Positions 35,699 to 64,000 of a stretch of 64,000 bases of DNA are shown here, in pieces (position 1 is the stretch's first letter; every line of letters begins with the position of its first letter). Source of the DNA: a virus. The notes below the pieces were generated by a model that saw only the letters and a program-made list of their open reading frames with translations, made no database searches and was not told the DNA's origin. The DNA lies in IMG/VR virus record IMGVR_UViG_3300021226_000189, one strand, 5' to 3'. The position numbers were made by a program, and so were the translations under genes.

Positions 35699-36142
35699 AT
35701 GACAATCGCACAACAATTAAAAATTAAAGAATTTCCTTTTGTAATCAAAGATTCCAATGGTAATGTGATTTACCATGAGGATTCCTCTGGACATTGGGTA
35801 AAACGTGAATGGGATGCCAATGGTAAAGTGATTTACTATGAGGCTTCCAAGGGATTTTGGATAAAATACGAATACGATGCCAATGGTGACGAGATTTACT
35901 GTGAGTCTTCCTCTGGATATTGGAGAAAACGTGAATGGGATGTCAATGGTAATCAGATTTACTATGAGACTTCCGATGGATATTGGTCAAAACACGAATA
36001 CGATGACAAGGGTAATGAGATTTACTATGAGAGTTCGAAGGGAGCAATCGAAGACAAACGTCCTAAAACAGAAGTTCAAAAGGCAATCGAACTCCTCACT
36101 AAAGAGGGATTGCTGGTGGATGGTAAGATTCTAAAAAACTAG
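35699..36142 (+). CDS. MTIAQQ repeat family copy 1 (4 repeat units, 147 aa)
   Basis: Constant caps plus 21-aa repeats. Confidence 0.9.
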   Translation: MTIAQQLKIKEFPFVIKDSNGNVIYHEDSSGHWVKREWDANGKVIYYEASKGFWIKYEYDANGDEIYCESSSGYWRKREWDVNGNQIYYETSDGYWSKHEYDDKGNEIYYESSKGAIEDKRPKTEVQKAIELLTKEGLLVDGKILKN

Positions 36143-36156
36143 AATACAATCACAAT

Positions 36157-36474
36157 ATGACAATCGCACAGCAATTAAAAATCAAAGACTTCCCGTTTGA
36201 AATCAAGGATGCCAATGGTAAAGAGATTTACTATGAGTTTTCCTCTGGATATTGGGAAAAACGTGAATACGATACCAATGGTAAATTGATTTACTATGAG
36301 GATTCCACTGGATATTGGGTAAAATATGAATACGATGACAAGGGTAATGAGATTTATTTTGAGAATTCCAAGGGAGTAATCGAAGACAATCGTCCTAAGA
36401 CTGATGTCCAACAAGCAATCGAACTCCTCACTAAAGAGGGATTGATTGCGGATGGTAAGATTCTAAAAAACTAG
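36157..36474 (+). CDS. MTIAQQ repeat family copy 2 (2 units, 105 aa)
   Basis: As above; motif-N6-ATG. Confidence 0.9.
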   Translation: MTIAQQLKIKDFPFEIKDANGKEIYYEFSSGYWEKREYDTNGKLIYYEDSTGYWVKYEYDDKGNEIYFENSKGVIEDNRPKTDVQQAIELLTKEGLIADGKILKN

Positions 36475-36488
36475 AATACAATCGTAGT

Positions 36489-36827
36489 ATGACAATCGCA
36501 CAGCAATTAAAAATCAAAGACTTCCCTTTTGAAATCAAGGATTCCAATGGTAAAGTGATTTACTTTGAGGATTCCACTGGATATTGGTCAAAACGTGAAT
36601 ACGATGCCAATGGTAATGTGATTTACTATGAGAATTCCAATGGATATTGGTCAAAACACGAATACGATTCCAATGGTGATTGGATTTACTATGAGGATTC
36701 CAATGGAGTAATCGTAGACAAACGTCCTAAGATAGAAGTTCAAAAGGCAATCGAACTCCTCACTAAAGAGGGATTGCTGGTGAATCTTGGTTGGATTCTG
36801 ATTATTAAAAAACTAAAATACAATTGA
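36489..36827 (+). CDS. MTIAQQ repeat family copy 3 (2 units, C-terminus replaced)
   Basis: Cap diverges after EGLLV. Confidence 0.85.
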   Translation: MTIAQQLKIKDFPFEIKDSNGKVIYFEDSTGYWSKREYDANGNVIYYENSNGYWSKHEYDSNGDWIYYEDSNGVIVDKRPKIEVQKAIELLTKEGLLVNLGWILIIKKLKYN

Positions 36828-36830
36828 GAC

Positions 36831-37007
36831 ATGAAAGCAAGCTATCGAAAAGTAAAGAACGGATTCTACCCTGTCATCATCTTCAATGACAAATCGAGAA
36901 TGACACATAGAACATTGTGCTGCACTAAAGAATTGGCTATCAATTTGGCACATAATATCATTCTAGGGATCGAGCAATACCGAGAAAAAGAATGTATTAT
37001 CCTATGA
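36831..37007 (+). CDS. Small hypothetical protein (58 aa, not in ORF track)
   Basis: Motif-N6-ATG; TGA overlaps next ATG. Confidence 0.55.
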   Translation: MKASYRKVKNGFYPVIIFNDKSRMTHRTLCCTKELAINLAHNIILGIEQYREKECIIL

Positions 37008-37273
37008 GAGATAAATTAAAAAGAAAAACAGTCTTCTTACCAATCATTGCGGAAATCGATGTTGAAGAGTGTATCTCTAACATGAGTTATGAGGAAGTCA
37101 TGGATCTCATTATCAAATTTGATTTGGCACAAGCGAATGCGGGATTCACTGAAGAATTGATTATCAAATTGGCTAAATCAATGAAAGATGATCTATCTGA
37201 AGAGGAATGGAAACCATACGAAAAATTCATCAAAGCAATCGAACAAGCCAATGAAACCTGCACAGATTCGTAA
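37004..37273 (+). CDS. Hypothetical protein
   Basis: ATGA-coupled. Confidence 0.6.
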   Translation: MRDKLKRKTVFLPIIAEIDVEECISNMSYEEVMDLIIKFDLAQANAGFTEELIIKLAKSMKDDLSEEEWKPYEKFIKAIEQANETCTDS

Positions 37274-37481
37274 GAAAGAAGATATGATGCTTGCTGAAAA
37301 AGCTTTACGTGAAAATAAGCAAGCACCATATGATGATTCTTTCAATCCTTGGGGCGATGATGAACCTTTGAGAAAAGATAGATTTAAAAGATATTACGAA
37401 GGCATCCATAAACGCTTTTGGAATTACGAACCAATCTTCAGGGATTTATGCGAAGTTTATGGATTAGAATTGAAAAATTAA
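37251..37481 (+). CDS. Hypothetical protein
   Basis: Packed ORF; stop begins the motif. Confidence 0.55.
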   Translation: MKPAQIRKKEDMMLAEKALRENKQAPYDDSFNPWGDDEPLRKDRFKRYYEGIHKRFWNYEPIFRDLCEVYGLELKN

Positions 37482-37506
37482 AAAACTAGAATACAATCGT
37501 AACACA

Positions 37507-38463
37507 ATGCAACTTAATACTCTCGAAACAAAATTCGCCAAATGCTCGTCTATTCAAATTCCAGATGCGTTCTACAATCGCATGTCTACTGGTAACGATG
37601 ATATCGATTTGATGTTCGGCACTGAGCAATTCAAAGGCTTTATGCCAGGTAGTGCTATCACCATCACTGGTACTCCAGGTGCTGGTAAATCCACTCTTCT
37701 CTGTCAGGTATCTCAGATGCTTACCACTCAAGGTAAACGTGCTGCTATCGCTTCTGGTGAAGAGTCTCATATTCAAATCGCTTATGCTTGCAAGCGTTTG
37801 GGTGTGACTGATGTGGATGTAGCTCATATCAAAGATGTGGAAGAAATCGCTGCTGCCATGCATCATTATGATTTCATGGTTGTGGATAGCTTTCAAGCTT
37901 TGCGTTCGAATAAGAACATGAAGAAGAGAGAGTTCAACCAATATGCTCAAGACTTACTCCTTTCCACTGCTAAAGAAACTGGTTGTGTTCTGGTGTTTGT
38001 TCTTCATATTACTGTTAGTGGTCTTCCTAAAGGTGGCACTGATGTCATCCATGCTGTCGATGTGAATATGCGTGTGACAGTGGACAAAGAAGACAATTCT
38101 ATGCGTCTGATTGATGTTTACAAGAATCGCTTTGGTGAAACTAAAACTCATATGGCTATGATGACTCCTAACGGTTTTGATTTCAAAGGTCTTTATGTTG
38201 CTCCTACTGAGGAAAACAAAGAAAAGCAACCCAAAGTTCCTGCAAATGAAAAGCGCAAAGAAGAGATTCTTTCCATGGATGAACCTCCTCACTTGACATT
38301 GGATCGTATCTGTGATAAGTTGGGTGTGTCAGGGCAAATTGCTGGTAGCATCCTACGCGAAATGGTTGGAGAAGGCAAGCTTCAGAAATTCGGTCGTGGT
38401 GCAAATGCTGTGTGGAAGATCGCACAAGAGTGTCAGAAACTTCATAAAGAATTGGTGAAATAA
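37507..38463 (+). CDS. RadA/Sms-like RecA-family ATPase with C-terminal winged-HTH-like segment
   Basis: GTPGAGKSTL, SGEES, VVDSFQ, H.VD, KNRFG. Confidence 0.8.
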   Translation: MQLNTLETKFAKCSSIQIPDAFYNRMSTGNDDIDLMFGTEQFKGFMPGSAITITGTPGAGKSTLLCQVSQMLTTQGKRAAIASGEESHIQIAYACKRLGVTDVDVAHIKDVEEIAAAMHHYDFMVVDSFQALRSNKNMKKREFNQYAQDLLLSTAKETGCVLVFVLHITVSGLPKGGTDVIHAVDVNMRVTVDKEDNSMRLIDVYKNRFGETKTHMAMMTPNGFDFKGLYVAPTEENKEKQPKVPANEKRKEEILSMDEPPHLTLDRICDKLGVSGQIAGSILREMVGEGKLQKFGRGANAVWKIAQECQKLHKELVK

Positions 38464-38464
38464 T

Positions 38465-38917
38465 ATGCAAACAACATACATCGGTGTCTATCTCAAAGTA
38501 GCTTATTCTAAATGTGAGCAAGAGACTATTACTTTGGTGAATTCCCAAGGGAAAGAATTTAAGAGTGGACAATTCGATCCAGATACAGGAGAGAAGTTGA
38601 TTGAAAAAGTATCTAAAACATACAAATGGGTGAAACCTGATATTGATATTGAAGATGAATATCTTGATGAGGATGAATTTCATTCACCTCTATGTATTGA
38701 TAGTAACACTCATGCTTATTTTCTAATTAATAGAAACACTAGATTTAGTACACATCTCGGAGAATATTCGATTTTCAAGGTCAGTGTGGATACCATTGAT
38801 ATTAAAGAAATCATCGAAGAATTCAAAAAAGAATACAGTGACTATCTACATTATTATACCACTGTTCGTGGATATGAAGTTGAAGTCAAATGGGGGGTTA
38901 TCAATTACGGGAATTAA
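38465..38917 (+). CDS. Hypothetical protein
   Basis: Packed ORF. Confidence 0.65.
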   Translation: MQTTYIGVYLKVAYSKCEQETITLVNSQGKEFKSGQFDPDTGEKLIEKVSKTYKWVKPDIDIEDEYLDEDEFHSPLCIDSNTHAYFLINRNTRFSTHLGEYSIFKVSVDTIDIKEIIEEFKKEYSDYLHYYTTVRGYEVEVKWGVINYGN

Positions 38918-38920
38918 TAT

Positions 38921-39136
38921 ATGAAACAAGAACTTAAATTAGGAATGGCAGCATTATCAAATGATGTGTTTGCAGGTTATCTTTGTAAAGACGGTAGAAC
39001 TTGGAAACAAGGTAAACACAATGTGACAAGTGATTTCTTACAAACGATGATCCAATATGTTGGTATTGGTAAATCTTTGGAAATTAATGTTGGAGGTAAA
39101 CCGAAGTATAAAGTCACGGTGGAGGAAATTGCTTAA
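38921..39136 (+). CDS. Hypothetical protein
   Basis: Packed ORF; stop begins motif variant. Confidence 0.65.
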   Translation: MKQELKLGMAALSNDVFAGYLCKDGRTWKQGKHNVTSDFLQTMIQYVGIGKSLEINVGGKPKYKVTVEEIA

Positions 39137-39221
39137 AAAATAGAATATACTGATTCTATAGGGTTGACAAAAAACGGAAATAGAGTAAAAAGAAATAGTG
39201 AAACAAACAATACAGTGAACG

Positions 39222-40232
39222 ATGAAACATTATACATTCCCAAAGATTAAACAATATCATCAAGTTCTTCGTGATATTAAATTGCGGATATCTTATATTG
39301 GAAAGGACGAAAATGATGAAGTAATTTATAAAGAGCCTGATACTTGGCCTATTATCAAATTCATAGGAAGAATTAAGCTACATGGCACTAATGCTGCTAT
39401 CGTTTTTAATTCAGATGGATCATTTTATTGTCAATCGAGAGAAAATATCATCAACGAAATTCAAGATAATGCTGGTTTTGCTCATTGGGTTAATAAAGAT
39501 GGGAAGGTTATTCGGAATGAAATCAGCACATCTTTCAAAGACGGTGTGAAACATATAATTTTGTTTGGTGAATGGTGCGGTGGTTCTATTCAAAAAGGTG
39601 TCGCACTAAATCAATTAAGTAAAAGGTTTGTCATATTCGGTATGAAAGCGGTGTTTGAAGACGATACTACTGAATGGTTGGATTCATCTGGTATTCGGAA
39701 TCATTCTATCAACGTGTATAATATTGACGATTATCGTAAATACGAAATCGATATCGATTTGAATCGTCCTGACAATGCTATTGAACAAATGACACAATGG
39801 ACTGGCGAAATTGGGGATGAATGTCCATTTTCCAAAGAGTTTGGAGTGTTAGGTGTGGGAGAGGGAATCGTGTGGAGAATGGAAAATGAATGGGGATACT
39901 CAACATCATTCAAAACAAAAGATGAAAAACATACTATTTCCAAAATTAAAAAGCTCCCTACGGTTGACGTGCAAAAATTAGACTCTATCCAAGAAGCCGT
40001 CGATACTCATTGTCATGAAGATAGATTACAACAAATTTACGATAAAATCGTTCTAACAGAAGCCGATAAAGTTCCTCAAAAGATCGGAGATTTTGTGCGT
40101 TTGGTGATTGAAGATTGTTGGGAAGAAGAAGGCGATTCTATCAGAGCATCAGATATTTCCAGAAAAGAATTCGGTGCTGCTTGTTCTAAAAAAATAGCCA
40201 AATGGTTTCAAAATAAAATTTCACAACTATGA
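39222..40232 (+). CDS. RNA ligase, Rnl2-like
   Basis: Motif I KLHGTN, LFGEWCG, F..F, GEGIV, K.K..K. Confidence 0.8.
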   Translation: MKHYTFPKIKQYHQVLRDIKLRISYIGKDENDEVIYKEPDTWPIIKFIGRIKLHGTNAAIVFNSDGSFYCQSRENIINEIQDNAGFAHWVNKDGKVIRNEISTSFKDGVKHIILFGEWCGGSIQKGVALNQLSKRFVIFGMKAVFEDDTTEWLDSSGIRNHSINVYNIDDYRKYEIDIDLNRPDNAIEQMTQWTGEIGDECPFSKEFGVLGVGEGIVWRMENEWGYSTSFKTKDEKHTISKIKKLPTVDVQKLDSIQEAVDTHCHEDRLQQIYDKIVLTEADKVPQKIGDFVRLVIEDCWEEEGDSIRASDISRKEFGAACSKKIAKWFQNKISQL

Positions 40233-40798
40233 AATTACTAATCGTACGCCATGGAGAATCGGAGGGGAACGTTGACAAATCGGTGTATTTCAAAATGCCT
40301 GACTGGTCAGTTCCTCTAACGGAAAAAGGTAAAGAACAAGCTAAAAAGGTTGGGAAAGTAATCTCAAAACATCTTGAAGAAGAGGATGAATGTTTCTTGG
40401 TTTACAGCCCTTATGTTAGAGCGAAGCATACGATGGAAATTATCAGTGAATGTATTACTCATCATATTCCATTATATAAAAAAGAACAAGTAATTACCAA
40501 AGAACGTGAATGGGGAAACCTTAGAGAAGAATACGAATCATTCAGAACCAGAGAAGAACGTAATCATTTATTCGATTTCTATCGTCGTCCTGTTGGTGGT
40601 GAGTCCTTTGCTGATTGTTATCAAAGAGCATTGATTTTTTTGAATTGGTTAAAAGAGTTGGAAACTGGAAACGCTATCATTGTATCACATGGGGAATTTA
40701 TCAAAACATTGCTGATGATCATTGATAATGTGAAGGTGGAAGACTTCGATAAAATTCCTCGCGTTAAGAACTGTGAATTGATTATCAGACATTACTAA
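40229..40798 (+). CDS. Histidine phosphatase (phosphoglycerate mutase family)
   Basis: VRHGESEGN, SPY.RA, GGES, VSHG. Confidence 0.9.
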   Translation: MKLLIVRHGESEGNVDKSVYFKMPDWSVPLTEKGKEQAKKVGKVISKHLEEEDECFLVYSPYVRAKHTMEIISECITHHIPLYKKEQVITKEREWGNLREEYESFRTREERNHLFDFYRRPVGGESFADCYQRALIFLNWLKELETGNAIIVSHGEFIKTLLMIIDNVKVEDFDKIPRVKNCELIIRHY

Positions 40799-40820
40799 AA
40801 AACTAGAATATACTTTTTAC

Positions 40821-41018
40821 ATGGTGACGAAATTAAATAAACAATACGATCCTGATGAAGTTCTGTCTTCCATTCAGAAAATTGACGAGAAGCTTTCTAT
40901 TCTGAGAGAGTCTTGGCAAGATGCTGATGAGAAGAAGAAAGACAAATGGATGAAAATGATTAACGAACAACTCGATCAACGTTTGACATTGATGAGCATT
41001 CGTGATAAAATGGGATGA
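40821..41018 (+). CDS. Hypothetical protein
   Basis: Motif-N6-ATG; stop overlaps tRNA-Ser 5' end. Confidence 0.65.
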   Translation: MVTKLNKQYDPDEVLSSIQKIDEKLSILRESWQDADEKKKDKWMKMINEQLDQRLTLMSIRDKMG

Positions 41019-41098
41019 TGCCAGAGTGGTAATGGTCTGGTCTTGAAAACCAGAGACAACCCTGACAGGTTGCGGAGGTTCGATCCCTTCTCATCTCG
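41012..41098 (+). tRNA. tRNA-Ser(TGA)
   Basis: Acceptor GGGATGA/TCATCTC, anticodon arm CTGGT-CTTGAAA-ACCAG, long variable arm, TTCGATC T-loop, G73. Confidence 0.88.
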
Positions 41099-41140
41099 CT
41101 CAAAAAACTTGACTTAATCGTTTGAAGTGTTAAATTAGAT

Positions 41141-41494
41141 ATGATGAAAGTAATCGCATTATTATGTATTTTATGTAACTTTTGTTATTCTGCTGAATAT
41201 GGGGTAGCATCCTTTTATTCAATCAGGACAAATGGTGGCACGAAAACTGCTAGCGGTGAACCTCTTTGTAACGATAAATTCACCGTTGCTCATAAAAAAA
41301 TCCCACTAGGGACGATGGTTAAAGTGACAAATCTATCTAATGGTAAACATGTTTATGCAAAAGTAACTGATAGAGGTCCTTATGTTAAAGGGCGAGTTAT
41401 TGACGTTTCCGATGCGTGTGCAGACGTTTTAAGATTTCGTCATAAAGGTTTGACAAAAGTAAAAATTGAAGTAATTAAAAGAACAAAAAAATGA
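41141..41494 (+). CDS. RlpA-like double-psi beta-barrel protein with signal peptide
   Basis: G.ASFY, TASGE, T.AHK..PLGT.VKVTN..NG, V.DRGPY..GR.IDVS. Confidence 0.88.
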   Translation: MMKVIALLCILCNFCYSAEYGVASFYSIRTNGGTKTASGEPLCNDKFTVAHKKIPLGTMVKVTNLSNGKHVYAKVTDRGPYVKGRVIDVSDACADVLRFRHKGLTKVKIEVIKRTKK

Positions 41495-42051
41495 AATATC
41501 GAATAAACATCAACGGCACTTGCTGCGAAAACAAATACTTTGCAGTATCTAAAGAAGCAAAAGAATTTTGGAAAGAAAAAGTAGACAGTTATGATCACGA
41601 TCTTCTAAACGAATATGTTTGGGATGAAGCTGATCTTGATGAAATTCCTGAGTCTGCTAGATTCTTAGACGACAATGACTTCCCCATGGAATACACTGTA
41701 GTTGATTTGGACTTCTGTGAAGTGTGGCTCCAGAATATCGACAAACCAGAACAAGAGTCTGTTGTGTTTCTGATTGAAGATGAAAACATCGTTAAATTTG
41801 ATGACGAAGAATTTGATAAAGATGACTATCTAGTGATTTCCGAATTCATGAAAGGCACTGTTTATGGCGGCGAAATTGAATTGAAAGAAGGTGAAACTTT
41901 CGATGCTTCAAAACTTAAAATCTATTTGTCGGAAGACCTTGATGGACTTACTATTCTAACAAGTGTGTATTATGATGAAGAAGAAATCGAAAACCCGGAG
42001 ATTTCTTTGATGGGAAAAGGTCGCACTGTTTATTTTGTATCAAAAGAGTAA
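41491..42051 (+). CDS. Hypothetical acidic protein
   Basis: 186 aa, coupled. Confidence 0.7.
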   Translation: MKYRININGTCCENKYFAVSKEAKEFWKEKVDSYDHDLLNEYVWDEADLDEIPESARFLDDNDFPMEYTVVDLDFCEVWLQNIDKPEQESVVFLIEDENIVKFDDEEFDKDDYLVISEFMKGTVYGGEIELKEGETFDASKLKIYLSEDLDGLTILTSVYYDEEEIENPEISLMGKGRTVYFVSKE

Positions 42052-42072
42052 AACGATAACAACTTTAAAAAT

Positions 42073-42300
42073 ATGAAAAAATTAAGAATCGTTGAAAAGC
42101 TATATAGTGATGGGTCAGTTCGCTTTGAAATCCAACGGAGAGGATTATTAGGTTCGTGGGTAAATGCAGTGCATGAAGATGCATGGACTCACGACTTTGA
42201 TAGTCTCGATAAAGCAAAAGCACAGTTGGATTATTATGCTGATCCTAGCTCTTGGCCACGAAAGAAAATTGTCTTTCAAAACTATGAAGATGAAAATTAA
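42073..42300 (+). CDS. Hypothetical protein
   Basis: Packed ORF. Confidence 0.6.
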   Translation: MKKLRIVEKLYSDGSVRFEIQRRGLLGSWVNAVHEDAWTHDFDSLDKAKAQLDYYADPSSWPRKKIVFQNYEDEN

Positions 42301-42308
42301 ATAATAAA

Positions 42309-42779
42309 ATGAAGAAACTACTCCTCCTATTGCTTAGTGCAATTACATGTCAGGCAGCTACAATCGCAACAAATGTTGTGCATAGCAGCGTAAGTCTCGG
42401 ATCAGATGGTCTGTATAGTTATAGCTATCAAATTCGACCGAGTGATGTTGATCGTCGTGATCTTTCATATTTTGAGGTTTTTCATTGCGAAGAGGCTCAA
42501 ATTATGAATCCAGAAGCGACAGTTCGTTTCAAACTTGAAGAAAAGTCATATAGCATTAAATGGGATTCCATTCAGGGCAATAATAATAACCAGCTTATTA
42601 CATTCACTCTTAAATCAAATATGATGCCAAGCGAAAATGGTAGACTTGAGTTTAAGATTGCAAATAAAACATGGACTCAAAATAATGTGATCACTCCTGG
42701 ATGCACTGCAATTCCAGAAACGAGTTCTGTATTGCTTGGTTTAATTGGTTGCGGCGTATTTCTTAGACGCAGACGATGA
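42309..42779 (+). CDS. PEP-CTERM-type sorting-signal protein
   Basis: N-terminal signal peptide; C-terminal IPETSS + hydrophobic helix + RRRR; TAAATA-N5-ATG. Confidence 0.8.
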   Translation: MKKLLLLLLSAITCQAATIATNVVHSSVSLGSDGLYSYSYQIRPSDVDRRDLSYFEVFHCEEAQIMNPEATVRFKLEEKSYSIKWDSIQGNNNNQLITFTLKSNMMPSENGRLEFKIANKTWTQNNVITPGCTAIPETSSVLLGLIGCGVFLRRRR

Positions 42780-43057
42780 CACCGTTCTTAAAAATCTTTA
42801 AAGCATTGTTTACAATCTTTTATTTGCAGAACTTTCCGCTTGATGAGCAAGAGATTGTTCACGACTATAGCGCAAAGTCTGCAAAAGATTGTGAACTTAT
42901 TATTGATCCAAAAGACGCTATCTATTTAGAGGCACCTGACTTTATGAATAGACAGGATGCCTTTATACTCCCTCCTACTTATGTCCCAACTCATGTCCCT
43001 ACGTCAGACATATCCCCTGCGACAGCCAATCGTATCAAACAAAGGATTAATCATTAA
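42776..43057 (+). CDS. Hypothetical protein
   Basis: ATGA-coupled to the PEP-CTERM gene. Confidence 0.5.
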   Translation: MTPFLKIFKALFTIFYLQNFPLDEQEIVHDYSAKSAKDCELIIDPKDAIYLEAPDFMNRQDAFILPPTYVPTHVPTSDISPATANRIKQRINH

Positions 43058-43808: not shown

Positions 43809-43814
43809 AAAGCT

Positions 43815-56793: not shown

Positions 56794-57189
56794 TCATCCT
56801 TGGGATTCTATATATTTTTTAATGGTTTCTATAGATGCATCACCACATGAGCATACAAAATATCCATCAGACCATAGGGTTCTCTCTTTCCAATAATTTT
56901 CTTTCATTTTCTTAGGATATCTTTTCCACATTTCTTTAGTTGATAATGATTTTAATGTTCTCACGATTGTCAAAGGGGATAATTTCGGAACTGAATTGAT
57001 AAGGATGTGAATATGATCCTCATCAGTTTCCAAGATATCTATATTAAAATCGTATTCTTCTGATATATTAACCATGATTTCTTTCAAAGTCAAATCAAAA
57101 TCACCTCTCAACAATCGTTTTCTATACTTTGTTGAGAAAATTATATGGTATTTCAATAGAAATTTCGAGTGATTTTTAGATACATACAA
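56794..57189 (-). CDS. tnpA: IS200/IS605 Y1 HUH transposase
   Basis: YHIIFSTKYRK, DHIHIL, LWSDGYF, IKKYIESQ. Confidence 0.95.
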   Translation of the reverse strand: MYVSKNHSKFLLKYHIIFSTKYRKRLLRGDFDLTLKEIMVNISEEYDFNIDILETDEDHIHILINSVPKLSPLTIVRTLKSLSTKEMWKRYPKKMKENYWKERTLWSDGYFVCSCGDASIETIKKYIESQG

Positions 57190-57249
57190 ATTATTTAGAT
57201 TATTTTTATTATTTTCTAAATAATTATCACCTTTAGACTAAATAATAAC

Positions 57250-58479
57250 ATAGAACAGGAAATTACATATCAAGCCTTCAAATTTAGAATATATCCTTTG
57301 GATTCTCAAAAGGAATTGCTTGAGAAGCATTTCGGATGTTCAAGATTCATTTATAATCATTTTTTGAAAGAGAAACAAGAAGAATATCTATCTTCTGGTA
57401 AGGGATTAACATATAGTAAGTGTTGTAAGATTCTAAAGGAATTAAAAGATAATGAATTAGAATGGTTGAAAGAAGTCAATTCACAGACCTTACAACAATC
57501 AATTCAAAATCTTGAGACTGCTTATGGAAACTTCTTTCGTAAGAAATCCAAATTTCCAAAGTTTAAAAAGAAATCAGAAAACCAATCCTTTAGGGTTCCC
57601 CAACACATTTCTTTGAAAGACAATAGACTCTTCATTCCAAAATTCAAAGATGGAATACCCATTGTATCACATCGTAAGTTAGAAGGTGAGATAAAGAGTG
57701 TTACGATTTCTAAAACACCTACTGATAAATATTTTGCTAGTATCTTAATGGAAGTTCCTAAAAAGTCTAAATCAAAGACTGGCAAGACCGTAGGAATTGA
57801 TTTAGGTATTATAGATTTCATAGTAACAAGCGATGGGGAGAAAATCAAGAATCCAAATTTTTCAAGATCATTAAAAGATAAATTAAAGACTCATCAAAAA
57901 CATTTAAGTAGGAAAACGAAAGGTAGTAATAGATACAAAAGACAAAGAAAGAAAGTGGTAAGAATCCATGAGAAGATAACCAATTCTCGAAAGGATTTTC
58001 AACACAAATTAAGCACTCGTTTGATTAATGAGTATGATATGATTTCTTTGGAATCTTTAGCTGTTAAGAATATGATACGGAATAGGTGCTTATCCTATTC
58101 CATATCTGATAGCTCTTGGAGTTCTTTTGTATCCATGTTGGAATATAAAGCCAGTTGGTATGGGAAGGAGATTAAGAAAATCGATAGATGGTATCCTAGT
58201 TCCAAGACATGCTCAAGCTGTGATTATATTATTGATAAGCTACCTTTGTCAGTGCGTAAGTGGCAATGTCCCGAGTGTGGTTCTCATCACCAAAGGGATG
58301 TCAATGCTGCTAAAAATATACATCGTCAGGGATTGACGATTACAGATGTGGAGATGGAAGCTCTGGTAAGAGGTAGTAATACTTCTCACGAAACTACTGT
58401 CTGTGAAGCGTCTAAAAAGAAGTCTATATCAGATCGAAAGATTTATAGACTGAAGCCGCTGGGTCTTGCCCAGCGGTAG
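57250..58479 (+). CDS. tnpB: TnpB RNA-guided nuclease (copy 2)
   Basis: Same intact motifs as copy 1; start extended to ATA 57250. Confidence 0.92.
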   Translation: MEQEITYQAFKFRIYPLDSQKELLEKHFGCSRFIYNHFLKEKQEEYLSSGKGLTYSKCCKILKELKDNELEWLKEVNSQTLQQSIQNLETAYGNFFRKKSKFPKFKKKSENQSFRVPQHISLKDNRLFIPKFKDGIPIVSHRKLEGEIKSVTISKTPTDKYFASILMEVPKKSKSKTGKTVGIDLGIIDFIVTSDGEKIKNPNFSRSLKDKLKTHQKHLSRKTKGSNRYKRQRKKVVRIHEKITNSRKDFQHKLSTRLINEYDMISLESLAVKNMIRNRCLSYSISDSSWSSFVSMLEYKASWYGKEIKKIDRWYPSSKTCSSCDYIIDKLPLSVRKWQCPECGSHHQRDVNAAKNIHRQGLTITDVEMEALVRGSNTSHETTVCEASKKKSISDRKIYRLKPLGLAQR

Positions 58480-58484
58480 TTCAC

Positions 58485-58665
58485 AATTGAACAAGTGAGA
58501 GAATATGTGGAAGGTCATCTTTTCACATGTTCTAACAAGCAAGAGCTATCCATGAACGAAATTCTTGCCATGCTGAAAAATGCTTTGGCATGTATCGAAG
58601 ATGGTGACGATGGTTTGGAAGCTTATCTTGATCGTATGGAATACTACAAAAAATTAAAAAACTAG
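58485..58665 (+). pseudogene. 3' part of a 63-aa gene split by the IS605 element
   Basis: ATGACATTTAC (56726-56736) + AATTGAACAAGTG.. reads MTFTIEQVREYVEG..KLKN*. Confidence 0.8.
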
Positions 58666-58679
58666 AATACACTTGGGAT

Positions 58680-58847
58680 ATGACGAGAGACGAATTACTA
58701 CCAATCATGGAAGCGATGGAAACCTACGGTGGTGGGTTTGTGAAAAAGCTGGTGCAAGCTATGCAAGTGGCTGATAACCACAATCTGGAACGCATCGTGA
58801 CAGCATTTCCCGAAATCATCGAACGATACAAACAATTTTTGAAATAA
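58680..58847 (+). CDS. Small hypothetical protein (55 aa, not in ORF track)
   Basis: Motif-N6-ATG; YGGGFVKKL..AD..N..RI..AFP. Confidence 0.65.
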   Translation: MTRDELLPIMEAMETYGGGFVKKLVQAMQVADNHNLERIVTAFPEIIERYKQFLK

Positions 58848-58848
58848 C

Positions 58849-59166
58849 ATGACAATCGCACAGCAATTAAAAATTAAAGACTTCCCTTTTACAATCAATG
58901 ATAAAAATGGTAATCAGATTTACTGGGAGACTTCCAATGGATATTGGTCAAAACGCGAATACAATACCAATGGTAATGTGATTTACTTTGAGACTTCCGA
59001 TGGATATTGGTTAAAACGTGAATACGATACCAATGGTAAATTGATTTACTTTGAGAATTCCTATGGAACAATCAAAGACAATCGCCCTAAAACAGATGTT
59101 CAAAAGGCAATCGAACTTCTTGAGAAAGAAGGATTGATTGTGGATGGAAAGATTCTAAAAAACTAG
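58849..59166 (+). CDS. MTIAQQ repeat family copy 9 (2 units, 105 aa)
   Basis: Caps plus repeats. Confidence 0.9.
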   Translation: MTIAQQLKIKDFPFTINDKNGNQIYWETSNGYWSKREYNTNGNVIYFETSDGYWLKREYDTNGKLIYFENSYGTIKDNRPKTDVQKAIELLEKEGLIVDGKILKN

Positions 59167-59182
59167 AATACAATCAACACAT

Positions 59183-59587
59183 ATGGGACGCTCAATTAGC
59201 ACACATCGAAACGCTTACACTACTTTCTTCACCACGTTTGATTATGATGATGATGAAGATTATTCACAATACGCATGGGATAGTTTTGTGAATTGTGTGC
59301 GGGACATTCTCTCAAAAAAATACAAATCTTTACAAAACGCTGATCGTTGGGTTGATCGTGAAGATCACATCATTCTCGAAAACAGCGTAGCAGAGATTTC
59401 CATTTCAGAATATTGTGGCGGCGTTGCTATCTGTCTCGCCCCTAGAGACACTGACAATCCCTTGCATGAGGGTTGGTGTGGTCAAATCTATAAAGGATTT
59501 CATGACATTTTGAATAAATGTTTTCAGGGTTATCACAAGATCGGATGCTTCTCCAATGGTGAGGGAGTGTATGAAAAAATCGCTTAA
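59183..59587 (+). CDS. Hypothetical protein
   Basis: Motif upstream; stop begins motif. Confidence 0.7.
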   Translation: MGRSISTHRNAYTTFFTTFDYDDDEDYSQYAWDSFVNCVRDILSKKYKSLQNADRWVDREDHIILENSVAEISISEYCGGVAICLAPRDTDNPLHEGWCGQIYKGFHDILNKCFQGYHKIGCFSNGEGVYEKIA

Positions 59588-59997
59588 AAACTAAAATACA
59601 ATTAACACATGAAAAAATATATCTATCGAATTTGGAATTACTTTCGCCCTTTCCCAAAACCAGAGTATGGTTGGAAAATCTTTCAACAAACGTCTTGGTT
59701 GAATAAGCAGATCCAAGAAGAACTCTTGAAACGTAAAGAAGATTGATGTTGGAAGTTATTTGTTTCTACACTATTATTATTACTCTTGGTGCTAGGTTAC
59801 ATTTAATATGCGCAATTTTTTCAATCCTATTGATTTATTTATTAAAAAACTAGAGTAATATTAAGACATGCTTAAGATTAAATTCATACTTGACACGAAC
59901 AAAGCTAAAGGTCTTCCATTCTCTGAAAAGAATCGTAAACGTTCTTGGTGAAGTAAGCTGTTGACTTTTCGGCTCTGTGAGTAAATAGAATAGTAAT

Positions 59998-60072
59998 GTG
60001 TCGTTCGTCTAACGGATAAGACTTGGGGATTCTACCCCCACAATACGGGTTCGATTCCTGTACGGCACACCA
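59998..60072 (+). tRNA. tRNA-Arg(TCT)
   Basis: GTGTCGT/ACGGCAC acceptor, GTCT/AGAC D-stem, TGGGG-ATTCTAC-CCCCA, encoded CCA. Confidence 0.85.
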
Positions 60073-60073
60073 T

Positions 60074-61132
60074 TTATTTTTTATTAAAATAACCTCTTGG
60101 TGGATAATCTGTGATGTCATATGATTTGCACCATTTTCTAACAGCATTATCAGACACTCCATATTTTTCACCCAATCTAGTGAAAGGTAATTCCCATAAC
60201 ATTTTTTCAAGTTCTTCCTTTTCAGGTCTATCTATAACTTTTCTGCGTCCAATTCTAAAACATGTCATACATTGCTTTGCGTCCGAGTCTTTGATATTAC
60301 CGCATTTACATAACTCTTTCATTTTTACCGTTTCTTTTTTAACATGTTTAAGTATGATGTTATGAATAATTTTCTGTGGTTTTTCTTTCCGTGGTTTTTC
60401 TTTCCGTGGTTTTTCTTTCTGACGTTTTTCGGCTTTCATATTGGAATAATTCAATGAACAAGGTCTACATCTGATAGCTCTTTTATCTATATGTTTACCG
60501 CAATCAACACAATATTTTAATTTCTTCATTTTCGGAACATAATTGAAATAATCAAATTCAACTTTAACATTTGCGTTTGATAACTCATCTATAAAATCAC
60601 TCCATTTATTTAAATTGAAACATGCTGAATAATGAATCTCGTATACATCCCATCCATTAGCTTCTAACAAATCATGTCTTTCTTGATAGTAAGATTTCAA
60701 TGTTCCGTCTCTTTCATAATGCTGATTACCATTGATTTCTAAAGCTATCATCTTATCAGGTAATGCAATGTCAATTGAAAACGATCTACCATCAATTTCT
60801 GGTTGATACTCTTCAATGAATGGAATATTTAATTGTGTTAGAAATTCTTTCACTTTCTCACAAGGTTTTGATTTAAATTTATCTTTATTTCTCCAAGGAT
60901 GTTTATCAGGATTATCTTTCAACCATTGCTTTCTCTTTTCTGATAGATTCTTTTTCGTTTCCTCTGTATGTATTACTGGTTTTGATTTATTGATTTTTAT
61001 ATTATTGTTTTTAAGAGTCTTTCTTACCAGACAATCAGACACGTTCAAATGATTTGCAATCTCCATCACGGTCAATCCTTTATCAGATAGCTCTTGTAAT
61101 TTTTCAATACTAAGATAAATTTTCTTCGGCAT
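60074..61132 (-). CDS. Vsr/DUF559-like PD-(D/E)xK endonuclease with HTH and Zn-finger modules, probable homing endonuclease
   Basis: DIALPDKMIALEINGNQH, CxxC..CxxC clusters, terminal HTHs; TAAATA-N5-ATG. Confidence 0.75.
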   Translation of the reverse strand: MPKKIYLSIEKLQELSDKGLTVMEIANHLNVSDCLVRKTLKNNNIKINKSKPVIHTEETKKNLSEKRKQWLKDNPDKHPWRNKDKFKSKPCEKVKEFLTQLNIPFIEEYQPEIDGRSFSIDIALPDKMIALEINGNQHYERDGTLKSYYQERHDLLEANGWDVYEIHYSACFNLNKWSDFIDELSNANVKVEFDYFNYVPKMKKLKYCVDCGKHIDKRAIRCRPCSLNYSNMKAEKRQKEKPRKEKPRKEKPQKIIHNIILKHVKKETVKMKELCKCGNIKDSDAKQCMTCFRIGRRKVIDRPEKEELEKMLWELPFTRLGEKYGVSDNAVRKWCKSYDITDYPPRGYFNKK

Positions 61133-61216
61133 ATAAGTATTTAACAGAATAACCTTACTTTACAAATAAGACTAATCTGATAAATAAAAACTAGAATACA
61201 TTACTTTACATACAAT

Positions 61217-61292
61217 GCGCTGATAGCTCAGTGGTTAGAGCAGGGTGCTCATAACGCCTTGGTCGTGGGTTCGAATCCCTCTCAGCGTACCA
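61217..61292 (+). tRNA. tRNA with CAT anticodon (elongator Met or lysidine Ile2)
   Basis: GCGCTGA/TCAGCGT acceptor, loop CTCATAA, CCA encoded; lacks initiator features. Confidence 0.88.
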
Positions 61293-61323
61293 ATTCTCTA
61301 AAAAACTAGAATACAATCACAAT

Positions 61324-61704
61324 ATGACAATTGCACAACAATTAAAAATTAAAGACTTCCCTTTTACAATCAATGATTCCAATGGTAAAGAGATTTACTA
61401 TGAAGCTTCCAATGGATATTGGCAAAAACGTGAATACGATACCAATGGTAATCGGATTTACTTTGAGACTTCCAATGGAACTTGGGTAAAACGCGAATAC
61501 GATACCAACGGTAAAGAGATTTACTTTGTGGATTCCGATGGATATTGGGCAAAACGTGAATGGGATACCAATGGTAATGAGATTTACTTTGAGAATTCCG
61601 ATGGAGAAATCATTGACAATCGTCCTAAGACTGATATTCAGAAAGCAATTGAATTTCTTGAGAAAGAGGGATTGATTGTGGATGGTAAGATCCTAAAAAA
61701 CTAG
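61324..61704 (+). CDS. MTIAQQ repeat family copy 10 (3 units, 126 aa)
   Basis: Caps plus repeats. Confidence 0.9.
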   Translation: MTIAQQLKIKDFPFTINDSNGKEIYYEASNGYWQKREYDTNGNRIYFETSNGTWVKREYDTNGKEIYFVDSDGYWAKREWDTNGNEIYFENSDGEIIDNRPKTDIQKAIEFLEKEGLIVDGKILKN

Positions 61705-61718
61705 AATACAATCACAAT

Positions 61719-62036
61719 ATGACAATCGCACAGCAATTAAAAATCAAAGACTTCCCTTTTACAATCAATGATTCCAATGGTAAATTGATTTACTATGAGA
61801 ATTCCAATGGATATTGGAGAAAATATGAATACGATGCCAATGGTAATGTGATTTACTTTGAGAATTCCACTGGACATTGGGAAAAACGTGAATGGAATTC
61901 CAATGGTATTCGGATTTACTTTGAGACTTCCTATGGAACAATCGTAGACAATCGTCCTAAGACAGAAGTTCAGAAAGCAATCGAACTCCTCACGAAAGAG
62001 GGATTGATTGTGGATGGAAAGATTCTTAAAAACTAG
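61719..62036 (+). CDS. MTIAQQ repeat family copy 11 (2 units, 105 aa)
   Basis: Caps plus repeats. Confidence 0.9.
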   Translation: MTIAQQLKIKDFPFTINDSNGKLIYYENSNGYWRKYEYDANGNVIYFENSTGHWEKREWNSNGIRIYFETSYGTIVDNRPKTEVQKAIELLTKEGLIVDGKILKN

Positions 62037-62050
62037 AATACACTCATAAC

Positions 62051-62431
62051 ATGACAATCGCACAGCAATTAAAAATTAAAGACTTCCCTTTTGAAATCAA
62101 GGATTCCAATGGTAAAGTGATTTACCTTGAGGATTCCAATGGATATTGGTCAAAACATGAATACGATGCCAATGGTAATCAGATTTACTGGGAAAATTCC
62201 AATGGATCTTGGTCAAAGCGTGAATACGATTCCAATCGTATTCGGATTTACTTTGAGACTTCCGATGGATATTGGTTAAAACGTGAATACGATACCAATT
62301 GTAATTGTATTTACTATGAGAATTCCGATAGAACAATCATTGACAATCGTCCTAAGACAGAAGTTCAAAAGGCAATCGAACTTCTTACGAAAGAGGGATT
62401 ACTGGTGGATGGAAAGATTCTAAAAAACTAG
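62051..62431 (+). CDS. MTIAQQ repeat family copy 12 (3 units, 126 aa)
   Basis: Caps plus repeats. Confidence 0.9.
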   Translation: MTIAQQLKIKDFPFEIKDSNGKVIYLEDSNGYWSKHEYDANGNQIYWENSNGSWSKREYDSNRIRIYFETSDGYWLKREYDTNCNCIYYENSDRTIIDNRPKTEVQKAIELLTKEGLLVDGKILKN

Positions 62432-62445
62432 AATACAATCGTAGT

Positions 62446-62634
62446 ATGACAACACAAGAAATTAACGATCTGGAAAGCCAATTCGATACTGTAGCAATCG
62501 AGATTCTTGATGCTCTAAAAAGCAATCCAAAATACATACAAATCAAAGCAAAATTCGATTTGTTGCAATCCATGATGCAAAACGCTATCGGTGAAGAATT
62601 TCCTGATAGTTGGATGGCAGAATTAAAAAACTAA
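62446..62634 (+). CDS. Hypothetical protein
   Basis: Motif-N6-ATG; ends KN* in the next motif. Confidence 0.7.
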   Translation: MTTQEINDLESQFDTVAIEILDALKSNPKYIQIKAKFDLLQSMMQNAIGEEFPDSWMAELKN

Positions 62635-62648
62635 AATAAAATATTTTT

Positions 62649-62731
62649 CGGAGTGTGTCCAAATTGGTAAAGGAGATCGACTTAAAATCGATTGGCACTG
62701 CGCCTTATGGGTTCGAGTCCCATCACTCCGA
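62649..62731 (+). tRNA. tRNA-Leu(TAA)
   Basis: CGGAGTG/CACTCCG acceptor, ATCGA-CTTAAAA-TCGAT, long variable arm, ATGGG-TTCGAGT-CCCAT; CCA not encoded. Confidence 0.9.
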
Positions 62732-62774
62732 CTTTCTTCCACCCATAATTAAAAAACTAGAATACAATTGATCT

Positions 62775-62969
62775 ATGGAATACATTAAACGATATAATTG
62801 GACAATCCGCAATACTGTAACTGGTCAAACGGCTGGGTATAATTGTTGGAATGGTGCTTGTGATGAAGATCATGTTCGCAATAGTCCATCTGTTCAAGCT
62901 TGGGCAAATGGTGATGAAATCGAAGTGATTGCAGAAACGTTTGAAGACTATGATGATCTTCAAGGTTAA
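62775..62969 (+). CDS. Hypothetical protein
   Basis: Motif-N6-ATG. Confidence 0.65.
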   Translation: MEYIKRYNWTIRNTVTGQTAGYNCWNGACDEDHVRNSPSVQAWANGDEIEVIAETFEDYDDLQG

Positions 62970-62991
62970 AAAACTAGAATACAATTGAGCC

Positions 62992-63666
62992 ATGACAAAA
63001 ACATACGATACCTTTCTCCCTATCTTCTCTGGATTCTACAATACCATTTGGGATGAATCCGAATCTTGGATGGAATGTGAACTTGATAGTGAAGAGTGTT
63101 TCCGTGAACACTATCCTGAATTCGATGGTATTCCTTTCGATTTCATTAGAGACAATTTTTGGGATATTGTCGATTGTCGCCAAGGTTTTGAGGGTGTGCT
63201 TGATTACATCGTGAGCGTGTTTCCTCGGTGGTTCAATGGTGAAGTGGGTTCTGATATTATCAAAAACGTCACTTTACAAAAGATCGTTTCCCCTCGTGAA
63301 TACAATTTCTGTAACGATTCTGCTGATGTTTCCATTGAAGTTGATACGGATTTGATTGCCAAGTATCTGCAAGAAAACGGTCATGCTTTCTCTGAGTATC
63401 TGAAAAAACGATACACTTCTCGTGATGGGTTCATCTCTCATTATTCTAACGATATTTCAGAATGGGCTGAAGACACTAACGATTTCACCGACTTCTCTGT
63501 CAATGGTCATTACTTGGGCGCGATTCTGGAATTTATTGTGAACGATTCCATTGATGATGCGGAAATGTCATTGTTCTATTCTGCAAATACTCATGAGGGA
63601 TTCTCTAACAGCGTGGGAGTCGATACTGCACGATTGGTGGAAAAATGGGAAGCATCGAAAGATTAA
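62992..63666 (+). CDS. Hypothetical acidic protein
   Basis: Motif-N6-ATG; FSGFYNTIW, SPREYNF.ND, YTSRDGFIS. Confidence 0.8.
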   Translation: MTKTYDTFLPIFSGFYNTIWDESESWMECELDSEECFREHYPEFDGIPFDFIRDNFWDIVDCRQGFEGVLDYIVSVFPRWFNGEVGSDIIKNVTLQKIVSPREYNFCNDSADVSIEVDTDLIAKYLQENGHAFSEYLKKRYTSRDGFISHYSNDISEWAEDTNDFTDFSVNGHYLGAILEFIVNDSIDDAEMSLFYSANTHEGFSNSVGVDTARLVEKWEASKD

Positions 63667-63688
63667 AAAACTAGAATACACTCATAAC

Positions 63689-64000
63689 ATGACAATCGCA
63701 CAGCAATTAAAAATTAAAGAATTTCCTTTCGGAATCAAGGATAAGAATAGTAATCAGATTTACTATGAGAATTCCACTGGATATTGGATAAAACGTGAAT
63801 GGGATGCCAATGGTAATCGGATTTACTTTGAGGATTCCAATGGATATTGGACAAAACATGAATACGATACCAATGGTAATTGGATTTACTATGAGAATTC
63901 CGAAGGAACAATCGAAGACAAACGTCCCAAGACTGATGTCCAAAAGGCAATCGAACTCCTCACGAAAGAGGGATCGATTGTGGATGGTAAGATTCTAAAA
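63689..64000 (+). CDS. MTIAQQ repeat family copy 13 (2 units; last codon and stop beyond window)
   Basis: 104 codons read to the window edge ending KILK; absent from ORF track. Confidence 0.9.
   Translation, partial: MTIAQQLKIKEFPFGIKDKNSNQIYYENSTGYWIKREWDANGNRIYFEDSNGYWTKHEYDTNGNWIYYENSEGTIEDKRPKTDVQKAIELLTKEGSIVDGKILK

Follow-up and report, generated by a model that had tools for sequence, protein, structure and literature searches.

Proteins of the Rhs/YD kind (T6SS Rhs effectors, e.g. RhsA 7q97 and 8qja; TcB–TcC; and the teneurins) are built from beta-hairpin repeats of ~21 residues with a Y-D-x-x-G turn. Rhs proteins proper are ~1,000 aa or more in length and form a closed cocoon; they comprise an Rhs core, a C-terminal aspartyl-protease motif and a polymorphic toxin domain. 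Smaller proteins that also consist of hairpin repeats include DUF3836 (4r8o, 4r03), BF3112 (3msw) and the YwqK/MORN-variant antitoxins. YwqK-type proteins neutralise polymorphic toxins, and carbohydrate binding has been proposed for the hairpin repeats of RHS, glucan-binding and choline-binding proteins. In lamprey VLR LRRs, ankyrin repeats and OspA-type single-layer sheets, repeat number varies, the framework is fixed, and hypervariable positions recur in each repeat. Binders diversified by DGRs (e.g. Mtd of a Bordetella phage) are phage-encoded and keep a fixed scaffold, in which variation is limited to bases one and two of a few codons; DGR targets are recognized by adenine-specific variation relative to a template repeat, a nearby reverse transcriptase (RT), and variation between close genomes. 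The hyperplastic regions of T4-like phages, finally, consist of small ORFan genes behind repeated, promoter-bearing ‘PeSL’ motifs, and among related T4-like phages whole cassettes are inserted or deleted (Arbiol et al. 2010, PMC2839356; Comeau et al. 2014, PMC4122927).

Here we describe an apparently phage-specific multigene family with 11 intact and two decayed genes (copies 3 and 6) in a 64-kb stretch of DNA, referred to as the window. An earlier note on this DNA had reported 13 copies in six loci, each with a conserved head and tail around 63-bp units, in lengths of 105, 126, 147 or 168 aa and with no identical pair. All 13 open reading frames (ORFs) lie where that note placed them, in six loci and on the + strand, with the parts it described, and the lengths hold for the intact copies (Table 1). 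Each copy begins with an 18-aa head, MTIAQQLKIK[D/E]FPFxI[K/N/D]D. Two to five full 21-aa units follow, then a partial capping unit ending in DNRPK or DKRPK, and a 24-aa tail, TEVQKAIELLTKEGLxVDGKILKN; intact copies are 63+21n aa long, and all 13 differ from one another in sequence. The deletions in copy 6 make it a pseudogene or a truncated form. A tblastn search over the window found no family copies beyond the 13; a weak match at 11497–11700, a low-complexity, N-rich stretch inside an unrelated 596-aa ORF, was rejected as a member. Antisense ORFs overlap the repeats, and we treat these as by-products of stop-free periodic sequence. No signal peptide or membrane anchor was found on inspection of the family sequences, and the products are predicted to be small cytoplasmic proteins. 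Their aromatic content is 13–18%, their pI 4.6–6.6 and their net charge 0 to −9; on the last two values we reject a reading as DNA mimics.

Table 1. Family copies and the promoter-like motif in the 64-kb window
Feature	Position	Strand	Description
Copy 1	35699..36142	+	147 aa, 4 full units; opens trio syntenic with 10001–11108 of relative L001
Copy 2	36157..36474	+	105 aa, 2 full units; exact promoter-like motif upstream
Copy 3	36489..36827	+	112 aa, 2 full units; indels alter C-tail, which reads ...LLVNLGWILIIKKLKYN
Copy 4	45234..45740	+	168 aa, 5 full units; AlphaFold2 model made
Copy 5	45755..46198	+	147 aa; unusual IYNNLIYFE unit common to copies 4 and 5
Copy 6	46213..46485	+	90 aa, decayed; 1-nt deletion follows S-K-G of last unit, ~39-nt deletion in tail
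Copy 7	46502..46945	+	147 aa, 4 full units
Copy 8	48136..48516	+	126 aa, solitary; modelled, pLDDT 92.8
Copy 9	58849..59166	+	105 aa, solitary; start abuts stop of upstream ORF
Copy 10	61324..61704	+	126 aa; directly 3' of tRNA-Met (61217–61292) and a motif copy
Copy 11	61719..62036	+	105 aa
Copy 12	62051..62431	+	126 aa
Copy 13	63689..64000	+	105-aa type; 104 residues visible, window end cuts gene
Promoter-like motif, TAAAAAAC-TAGAATACAaT-N5/6-ATG	37 copies, span 21237..63678	+	Bounds most small genes

For both copies modelled, AlphaFold2 predicts one antiparallel sheet, with nine strands in the 126-aa copy 8 and 13 in the 168-aa copy 4 (pLDDT 92.5); strand number rises with unit number, as would be expected of the sheet of adjustable length proposed earlier. 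The predicted parts are an N-cap (a helix and the FPF strand), the hairpin sheet, a capping half-unit (GxIxDNRPK) and a helix-hairpin tail of 24 residues. Since the proteins are only 105–168 aa long, they would form an open strip of 7–13 strands and no closed cocoon. A homodimer prediction for two copies scored 0.01, and counts neither for nor against a dimer.

Both its sequence profile and its predicted structure relate the repeat to Rhs/YD shells, which upholds its initial description as YD/RHS-like. A profile of the 13 copies run against PDB sequences matches RhsA (7q97) at E 9.6e-7 and Tse5 at E 9e-4, aligned to Rhs in the YD register (eYDanG vs hDahG/YDaaG). VIA-align wide returns nine Rhs/TcC chains (Z 12.1–10.5, rmsd 2.0–3.9 Å over 87–94 residues), the best Rhs core superposition having an rmsd of 2.1 Å over 87 residues at Z 12.1. 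Foldseek matches RhsA at E 2e-5 (TMq 0.59), and OspA mutants are also among its fold matches. Pfam, PHROGs and NCBIfam give no match to the copies at curated thresholds: PF05593 (RHS_repeat) reaches E 0.3 and 12 bits, under its cut-off of 22, and TIGR01643 (YD_repeat_2x) E 0.21 and 12.1 bits, under 15.8. No Rhs core was found: NF041261 RHS_core scores 20.9 bits, its cut-off being 2000. P0128, a relative in which the family's repeat is part of a fusion, does pass PF05593 (33.2 bits), and in some Atlas clusters nearby that domain is present in 20–52% of the members. Unlike Rhs proteins, the family has no aspartyl-protease motif, plug or toxin domain; it has its own N-cap and C-tail, many copies per phage, and hypervariable positions. 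In being short, cytoplasmic and made purely of beta-hairpin repeats, it resembles DUF3836, BF3112 and the YwqK/MORN-variant antitoxins, and structural matches of the DUF3836/BF3112 type are moderate (Z 5.8–7.3, rmsd 4–8 Å). The repeat motif and spacing are unlike those of the YwqK/MORN-variant and DUF3836 repeats, however, and Pfam MORN_2 gives no match to the copies at an E of 1 or below. The neutralisation of toxins by YwqK-type proteins sets a precedent for a function in binding and blocking.

In the window, an ORFan-rich region also contains tRNAs, RNA ligases and a clamp loader like T4 gp44. These genes support the view, already taken in the earlier note, that the element is phage-encoded; its carrier is an uncultured T4-like phage. 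The genes adjoining family copies are ORFans throughout, and so the genomic context offers no functional hint. A promoter-like motif, AAAAMTAGAATA, occurs 37 times in the window, always on the + strand, against 0.19 occurrences expected, and mostly 10–13 nt ahead of an ATG. It had been described as a ‘leaderless motif’ behind which most copies start and inside the next of which they end. That much stands: the exact motif is present upstream of eight copies and a variant upstream of two (copies 5 and 7), with none at three (copies 1, 4 and 9), and the tails of intact copies run into the motif that follows. It is not specific to the family, however, for it also lies ahead of numerous unrelated small genes, from 21.2 to 63.7 kb. 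As in PeSL cassettes, a repeated promoter-like motif lies at gene boundaries and whole blocks are gained or lost between related phages; the block 35685–37478, for example, is missing from two syntenic relatives (L008 and L005). PeSL cassettes are marked, besides, by a stem-loop terminator joined to the promoter and by indel end points at the motifs. Unlike in PeSL regions, a single family has been amplified to 13 copies within the region, and the motif also encodes the last codons and stop of the family's genes, its A-tract and TAG/TAA specifying ILKN-stop in intact copies.

Units grow and swap in register, as whole 63-bp blocks. Copy 4 contains an exact 94-nt duplication at an offset of 126 nt (45405–45498 = 45531–45624), and for 36 of the 38 units the nearest unit sits in a different gene. 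Whole genes, too, are gained, lost and decayed in this cassette-like, promoter-studded plastic region. At syntenic sites the window has three, four and one copies vs none, two and none in relatives, and other contigs carry 7 to 11 family copies. Static arrays across relatives had been named as an outcome that would speak against diversification, and here the evidence divides: copy number differs at syntenic sites, but near-identical strains carry the same array. Two contigs from different samples (L001 and L049) differ by 1 nt in 20,219, seven family genes included, and their arrays, 99.995% identical over 20 kb at the level of the contigs, are the same; diversification thus appears slow, without sign of rapid ongoing change. 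That the family is a recombination-driven combinatorial library, an evolvable pool of binding surfaces shared by the phage population, is conceivable but, in our view, unlikely. Scaffold codons would then stay near-identical in nucleotides, within a genome and between co-circulating phages, and this near-identity would permit the duplication and exchange of 63-bp units, in register, among paralogs and co-infecting genomes. In function such a library would compare with VLR or antigenic-variation cassettes, but it would be viral, and on a YD-hairpin scaffold.

The scaffold of the unit comprises I6, Y7, E9, S11, G13, W15, K17, E19 and D21. Positions 5, 8, 10, 12 and 16 are hypervariable family-wide, and positions 2, 4, 14, 18 and 20 less so; among 33 homologues, entropy is 2.1–2.8 bits at the first five vs at most 0.3 bits at the scaffold. 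Variation is concentrated, then, at fixed positions of the unit, as had been claimed, and dN exceeds dS there. Over 703 unit pairs, the variable codons have a dN of 0.58 and a dS of 0.11, a ratio (5.5) inflated by the abnormal conservation of synonymous sites in the scaffold; for scaffold codons the ratio is 0.3. Repeat dS is 0.09–0.26, abnormally low vs 0.5–0.7 in head and tail and 0.23–0.71 in neighbouring genes, and with head-and-tail dS from within the genome as denominator, the variable-codon ratio comes to only ~1.3–2. In comparisons between genomes, saturation of the variable codons brings it below 1. Among genes of the same length, pN/pS is 1.9 in the repeats, 0.22 in the head and 0.26 in the tail. 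Strand alternation and turn types, rather than atomic coordinates, would place positions 8, 10, 14, 16 and 18, and loop residue 12, mostly on one face or its adjoining loop edge, with a conserved Y/E/W/K/E ladder on the opposite face holding the single-layer sheet together; an alternative strand register would place variable residues on both faces. Mutual information among variable positions reveals local linkage only (7 of 45 pairs at p<0.05), and fits recombination and recurrent mutation alike.

A near-length homologue search yielded 1,540 clusters at 90% identity, and a profile search 6,500 representative clusters, the latter including unrelated long proteins with only the repeat in common. 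Neighbours in the Atlas and BFVD are nearly all from uncultured Uroviricota, and 185,579 prokaryote genomes gave five hits, all on short MAG or SAG contigs; to judge from these searches, the family is apparently restricted to phages. Megablast of 20 kb against a phage collection gave no match, and tblastn found there only ORF42 of Verrucomicrobia phage P8625 (43% identity, annotated hypothetical) and a weak match in a Streptococcus phage. The repeat also occurs elsewhere in fusions, with SET, F-box-like, HAD_SAK_1 and other domains as partners, a pattern that suits a binding module, and in relatives other short modules replace the tail. A literature search found no paper describing this mini YD-repeat family, although a Pfam entry for it may already exist: in the protein database, two close homologues carry PF27963. 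The family is large and without a name or a published description that we could find, and it belongs to the known YD-hairpin kind.

The interpretation in the earlier note is upheld in part. We give an even chance to the reading that takes all of this together: a capped YD-hairpin phage family, variable on one face, that serves as diversified binders. The proteins would be made during infection as candidate binders of variable host or competitor proteins, most likely to neutralise defence or toxin proteins, and separate paralogs would cover separate targets. The likeness to VLR, ankyrin and OspA repertoires lies in variable repeat number, fixed framework and recurring hypervariable positions; the YD-hairpin fold and the viral context differ. 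The same data might instead describe a proliferating, largely dispensable cassette with no diversified function, its variable sites an unconstrained, saturated surface and its scaffold homogenised by gene conversion or nucleotide-level constraint. Variable codons have a pN of 0.41 within genomes vs 0.40–0.45 between them, which points to saturation; the conserved scaffold synonymous sites, the decay of two copies in 13 and the absence of copies from relatives' syntenic sites are consistent with such a cassette as well. Homogenisation, however, should erase neutral non-synonymous variation along with synonymous, whereas pN is four times pS in the same variable codons, and 120 of the 123 four-fold third positions within them are unchanged. 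The same positions vary over >1,500 clusters, head, scaffold and tail are under purifying selection, and 11 of the 13 copies retain intact frames, and we consider a dispensable cassette unlikely.

Quite unlikely, in our view, is a place in the virion, as internal head, decoration or adhesion proteins with the constant head as a targeting signal. The T4 internal head proteins IPI–III are injected along with the DNA, T-even internal proteins have an N-terminal leader that directs them to the prohead and is cleaved off, and the T4 prohead protease cleaves in an (L/I)-x-E context, which the KIKE-F in most homologues' heads resembles. A strictly conserved head on variable bodies, the same kind of polymorphism at T-even IP loci, and minor tail proteins among the weak fold matches would all suit packaged proteins. 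Against this, the head motif recurs internally, before each repeat block, in multi-module relatives (P0130, P0166) and is modelled at pLDDT ~90 as a sheet cap, which makes it part of the fold and not a leader peptide; nine of the 13 window copies have D, not E, at the position in question, and the genes lie among small ORFan cassettes and tRNAs, not structural genes. Binding of carbohydrate or cell-envelope material, rather than of proteins, is less probable again. The aromatic content would suit it, as would weak profile matches to glucansucrase glucan-binding repeats and TIGR04035 (E 0.03–0.35) and to an endolysin PHROG (E 0.008), but none of these profile matches reaches a threshold, Rhs shells give far stronger matches in structure, and the sequences have no export signal or anchor. 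Targeted mutagenesis of the repeats, by a DGR or similar, we reject, leaving it only the slightest chance. Only the first and second positions of particular codons vary, the third being fixed, and this superficially recalls the AAY-to-NNY pattern; yet 19 A columns are fully invariant across the 38 units, three of them at third codon positions (GAA, NNA), the variable columns are not A-derived, and near-identical genomes from different samples carry identical arrays. Unlike in DGR binders, there is no adenine-specific pattern and no template repeat seen in the window, nor an RT among its ORFs of at least 300 aa (64 kb of a ~198-kb genome).

If the binder reading is true, these genes would represent a very abundant, so far unnamed class of phage proteins, and would show how large aquatic phages deploy numerous small, tunable modules to recognise host factors that vary. 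The family would then be a candidate source of proteins that counter defence or neutralise toxins. It is also of interest for protein engineering, as a minimal, naturally occurring scaffold of capped YD hairpins that is adjustable in length and whose framework and variable positions are defined, and its unusually conserved scaffold synonymous sites pose a testable question: how repeat families stay able to recombine.

The 13 small repeat proteins encoded in this window form a family of stand-alone, capped and hypervariable YD-repeat proteins that have been amplified in a phage. All 13 open reading frames (ORFs) that the earlier note had reported are present at precisely the positions it gave, each on the + strand, and tblastn of the window found no copies beyond these. 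That note's observation of the family is confirmed, and its interpretation is partly supported. Each copy begins with an 18-residue head, MTIAQQLKIK[D/E]FPFxI[K/N/D]D. This is followed by two to five complete units of 21 residues, x-N-G-x-x-I-Y-x-E-x-S-x-G-x-W-x-K-x-E-Y/W-D, then by a capping half-unit ending in D[N/K]RPK and, finally, by a 24-residue tail, TEVQKAIELLTKEGLxVDGKILKN. Intact copies are 105, 126, 147 or 168 amino acids (aa) long. In the copy that starts at 46213, a 1-nt deletion shifts the frame and ~39 nt of the tail have been lost; the tail of copy 36489 carries indels, and copy 63689 runs off the end of the window.

AlphaFold2 yields confident models for a 126-aa copy (pLDDT 92.8) and a 168-aa copy (pLDDT 92.5). 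In both, a short N-terminal helix is predicted to precede 9 or 13 strands, which are followed by a helix and a small hairpin. The modelled hairpin strands are regular, at unit positions 5–10 and 15–20, and the predicted sheet gains two strands per unit between the two models, in line with the adjustable length proposed for it earlier. The same proposal likened the repeat to YD/RHS hairpins, and this has held up. In an exhaustive structural search, Rhs cores rank first (8qja, Z 12.1, rmsd 2.1 Å over 87 residues; 7q97, Z 11.7), TcB/TcC and teneurins rank after them, and Z is 5.8–7.3 for BF3112 and DUF3836, which are small hairpin proteins of Bacteroides; Foldseek is concordant. The family profile matches RhsA (E 9.6e-7) in the YD register. 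The window's copies fall below the threshold of the curated RHS/YD models, and a fused relative bearing the same repeat passes Pfam RHS_repeat. Together, the structural matches, the profile match and the fused relative identify the family repeat as a diverged YD/RHS repeat. The proteins themselves are not Rhs proteins, as they lack a cocoon, an Rhs core and a toxin. The D-x-N-G and S-x-G turns are compatible with canonical hairpin loops, of two residues (type I') and three residues (G1-bulge). Given those registers, Y7, E9, S11, W15, K17, E19 and D21 would line up on one face as a conserved ladder across the strands. The opposite face would comprise I6, x8, x10, x14, x16, x18 and Y/W20, with x12 at the adjoining loop edge; these faces are assigned from turn types rather than coordinates, and an alternative register would mix the two.

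The variable codons are those at unit positions 1, 4, 5, 8, 10, 12, 14, 16, 18 and 20. Among 33 homologues from many samples, positions 5, 8, 10, 12 and 16 are hypervariable as in the window, at an entropy of 2.1–2.8 bits. Over the 38 complete units of the window, third codon positions are nearly fixed, variable codons included (NCC, NNG, TNT, NNT, NNT, NNA), and the four-fold third positions of variable codons have the majority base in 120 of 123 cases. At synonymous sites, scaffold codons have diverged far less than the heads and tails of their own genes. For copies inside the window, pS is 0.09 for the scaffold, 0.24 for the head and 0.34 for the tail; against related contigs it is 0.13–0.26 for the scaffold and 0.53–0.69 for head and tail. 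For the orthologous trio of genes at 35699, 36157 and 36489, dS is 0.11 (scaffold), 0.82 (head) and 1.41 (tail). Single-copy neighbour genes have a pS of 0.23–0.71. Scaffold synonymous divergence is 3–10 times below that of heads, tails and neighbour genes, both within and between genomes (window 35699–64000 versus contigs L001, L004, L008 and L009). A second clade of contigs has different scaffold codons, so the constraint is not universal.

This low scaffold dS reflects either homogenization of units, within and between co-circulating phages, or selection on the nucleotide sequence itself. Over the 703 unit pairs, dN/dS is 0.3 for scaffold codons and 5.5 for variable codons (dN 0.583; dS 0.106), and under either cause the latter ratio overstates positive selection; it is about 1.3–2 when dS is instead taken from the heads and tails within the genome. 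In same-length gene pairs, pN/pS is 1.9 for the repeats, 0.22 for the head and 0.26 for the tail. When distinct codons are counted conservatively, the repeats show 61 non-synonymous and 13 synonymous events (omega-like ratio ~1.0), and the omega-like ratio for head and tail is 0.24–0.25. Homogenization alone cannot account for non-synonymous differences that survive while adjacent synonymous ones vanish. Diversifying selection, or a yet unknown mechanism, remains needed to explain the unit variation.

The units behave as modules. For 36 of the 38, the nearest relative lies in another gene; ordinal position is not fixed, and linkage among variable positions is local only. Copy 45234 contains an exact 94-nt duplication, at an offset of 126 nt. 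Nor are the arrays static: copy content differs at syntenic sites of relatives that are 75–90% identical at the nucleotide level. The trio is missing from L008, L005 and L030, and is kept, with identical lengths, in L001 and L049. L030, L022 and L031 have two copies in place of the four at 45234, and lack the solitary copy 48136. On other contigs there are as many as 11 copies within 20 kb, or 9 copies in tandem. From these array differences and the conserved trio, we conclude that the family evolves by gene birth and death over evolutionary time, and not by rapid switching.

The window comes from a T4-like phage that is large and uncultured. Its proteins are assigned to a 198,244-bp contig in the protein database, and the clamp loader that it encodes, of the gp44 type, is at best 41% identical to those of cultured phages. 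The window also encodes RNA ligases, a KaiC/DnaB-like ATPase, DUF932, TnpB proteins and tRNAs; the genes adjoining the family arrays are ORFans. The sequence AAAAMTAGAATA occurs 37 times, on the + strand only, against 0.19 occurrences expected. It marks a promoter-like motif with neither a conserved -35 element nor a Shine–Dalgarno sequence, from which leaderless or near-leaderless mRNAs may arise. The motif stands ahead of many small genes unrelated to the family, and most small genes, along with some tRNAs, are bounded by it. The 'leaderless motif' noted earlier before most copies is therefore real, but it is a property of the region and not of the family. The A-tract of the following motif supplies the final codons of the family genes together with their stop (ILKN-TAG/TAA). 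PeSL cassettes in the hyperplastic regions of T4-like phages (PMC2839356, PMC4122927) are the closest precedent for such a motif-studded region, and the motif resembles PeSL-type cassette junctions.

Features of the window, with coordinates and strand
Feature	Position	Strand	Remarks
Family copies (starts)	35699, 36157, 36489, 45234, 45755, 46213, 46502, 48136, 58849, 61324, 61719, 62051, 63689	+	13 ORFs
Promoter-like motif	21237-63678	+	37 copies; full form TAAAAAAC-TAGAATACAaT-N5/6-ATG
TnpB (OrfB_IS605 / Cas12f-like TNB)	55035-56231; 57298-58479	-; +	Divergent pair within plastic region
RNA ligases	24060-25157; 39222-40232	+; +	One T4 Rnl1-type, one RNA_ligase/Rnl2-type
tRNA genes Ser, Arg, Met, Leu	41012, 59998, 61217, 62649		
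352-aa ORF	60074-61132	-	Between tRNA-Arg and tRNA-Met, on the opposite strand; weak HTH_23 and RAP-domain matches; may be a homing-endonuclease-like insertion
Block of large unassigned ORFs	4193-12774		May be structural genes; includes the 596-aa protein
596-aa protein	10984-12774	+	Long low-complexity stretch rich in N/S/G/I; no family match
NAD-dependent epimerase/dehydratase	13287-14252	+	Phage-encoded; GDP-mannose 4,6-dehydratase family, E 2e-55

Relatives are abundant. A near-length search returned 1,540 clusters at 90% identity, and a profile search 6,500 representative clusters (2,105 below 1e-10), a figure that also takes in proteins of 200 to >7,000 aa with the same repeat beside other domains (SET, F-box-like, HAD_SAK_1 and Cu_amine_oxidN1). 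The small capped form appears to be viral. Its Atlas and BFVD neighbours are 'hypothetical proteins', nearly all from uncultured Uroviricota, and a lone copy was found in a cultured phage, P8625. Among 185,579 prokaryote genomes there are only five matches, each on a short MAG or SAG contig: two Marinimicrobia SAGs (L052, L054), an alphaproteobacterial SAG (L053), a Saprospirales MAG (L051) and a Bacteroidetes MAG (L055). Infected cells may be the source of this DNA, which would then be of phage origin and could give a clue to hosts. Some relatives (e.g. P0171, P0184, P0230, P0239 and P0139) keep the head and repeats and replace the tail with other short modules: an HTH-like one (...VELTLDEIAKKLGIDVNLLKIKK) similar to the head motif, a hairpin (...GKVVEIDGKKYKLTEL), Cys-rich tails or helical tails. 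The head motif reappears internally in multi-module relatives, which argues that it is a structural cap rather than a leader peptide. PF27963 is assigned to two homologues in the protein database; a literature search found no paper describing the family.

The family proteins have no signal peptide and a mildly acidic pI, which points to a cytoplasmic location. The framework is fixed, hypervariability is specific to certain positions, length is adjustable, paralogs are many, and the repeat is also appended to enzymes and adaptor domains, all of which points to target recognition. The candidate function that we favour, at about even chances, is binding inside the cell: these would be diversified binders of variable proteins of the host or of competitors, with the neutralization of defence or toxin proteins as the likeliest task. 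It is unlikely that they are cassettes that proliferate without any function, and quite unlikely that they are packaged or virion proteins; that they bind carbohydrates is improbable. Targeted mutagenesis is scarcely credible. A DGR, in particular, was rejected: 19 adenine columns, of which three are third codon positions, show no change at all; there is no RT among the window's large ORFs; and contigs from different samples differ by a single nucleotide over 20,219 nt in which seven family genes lie. The family is notable for having no published description that we found, for its abundance and for its unusual evolutionary signature.
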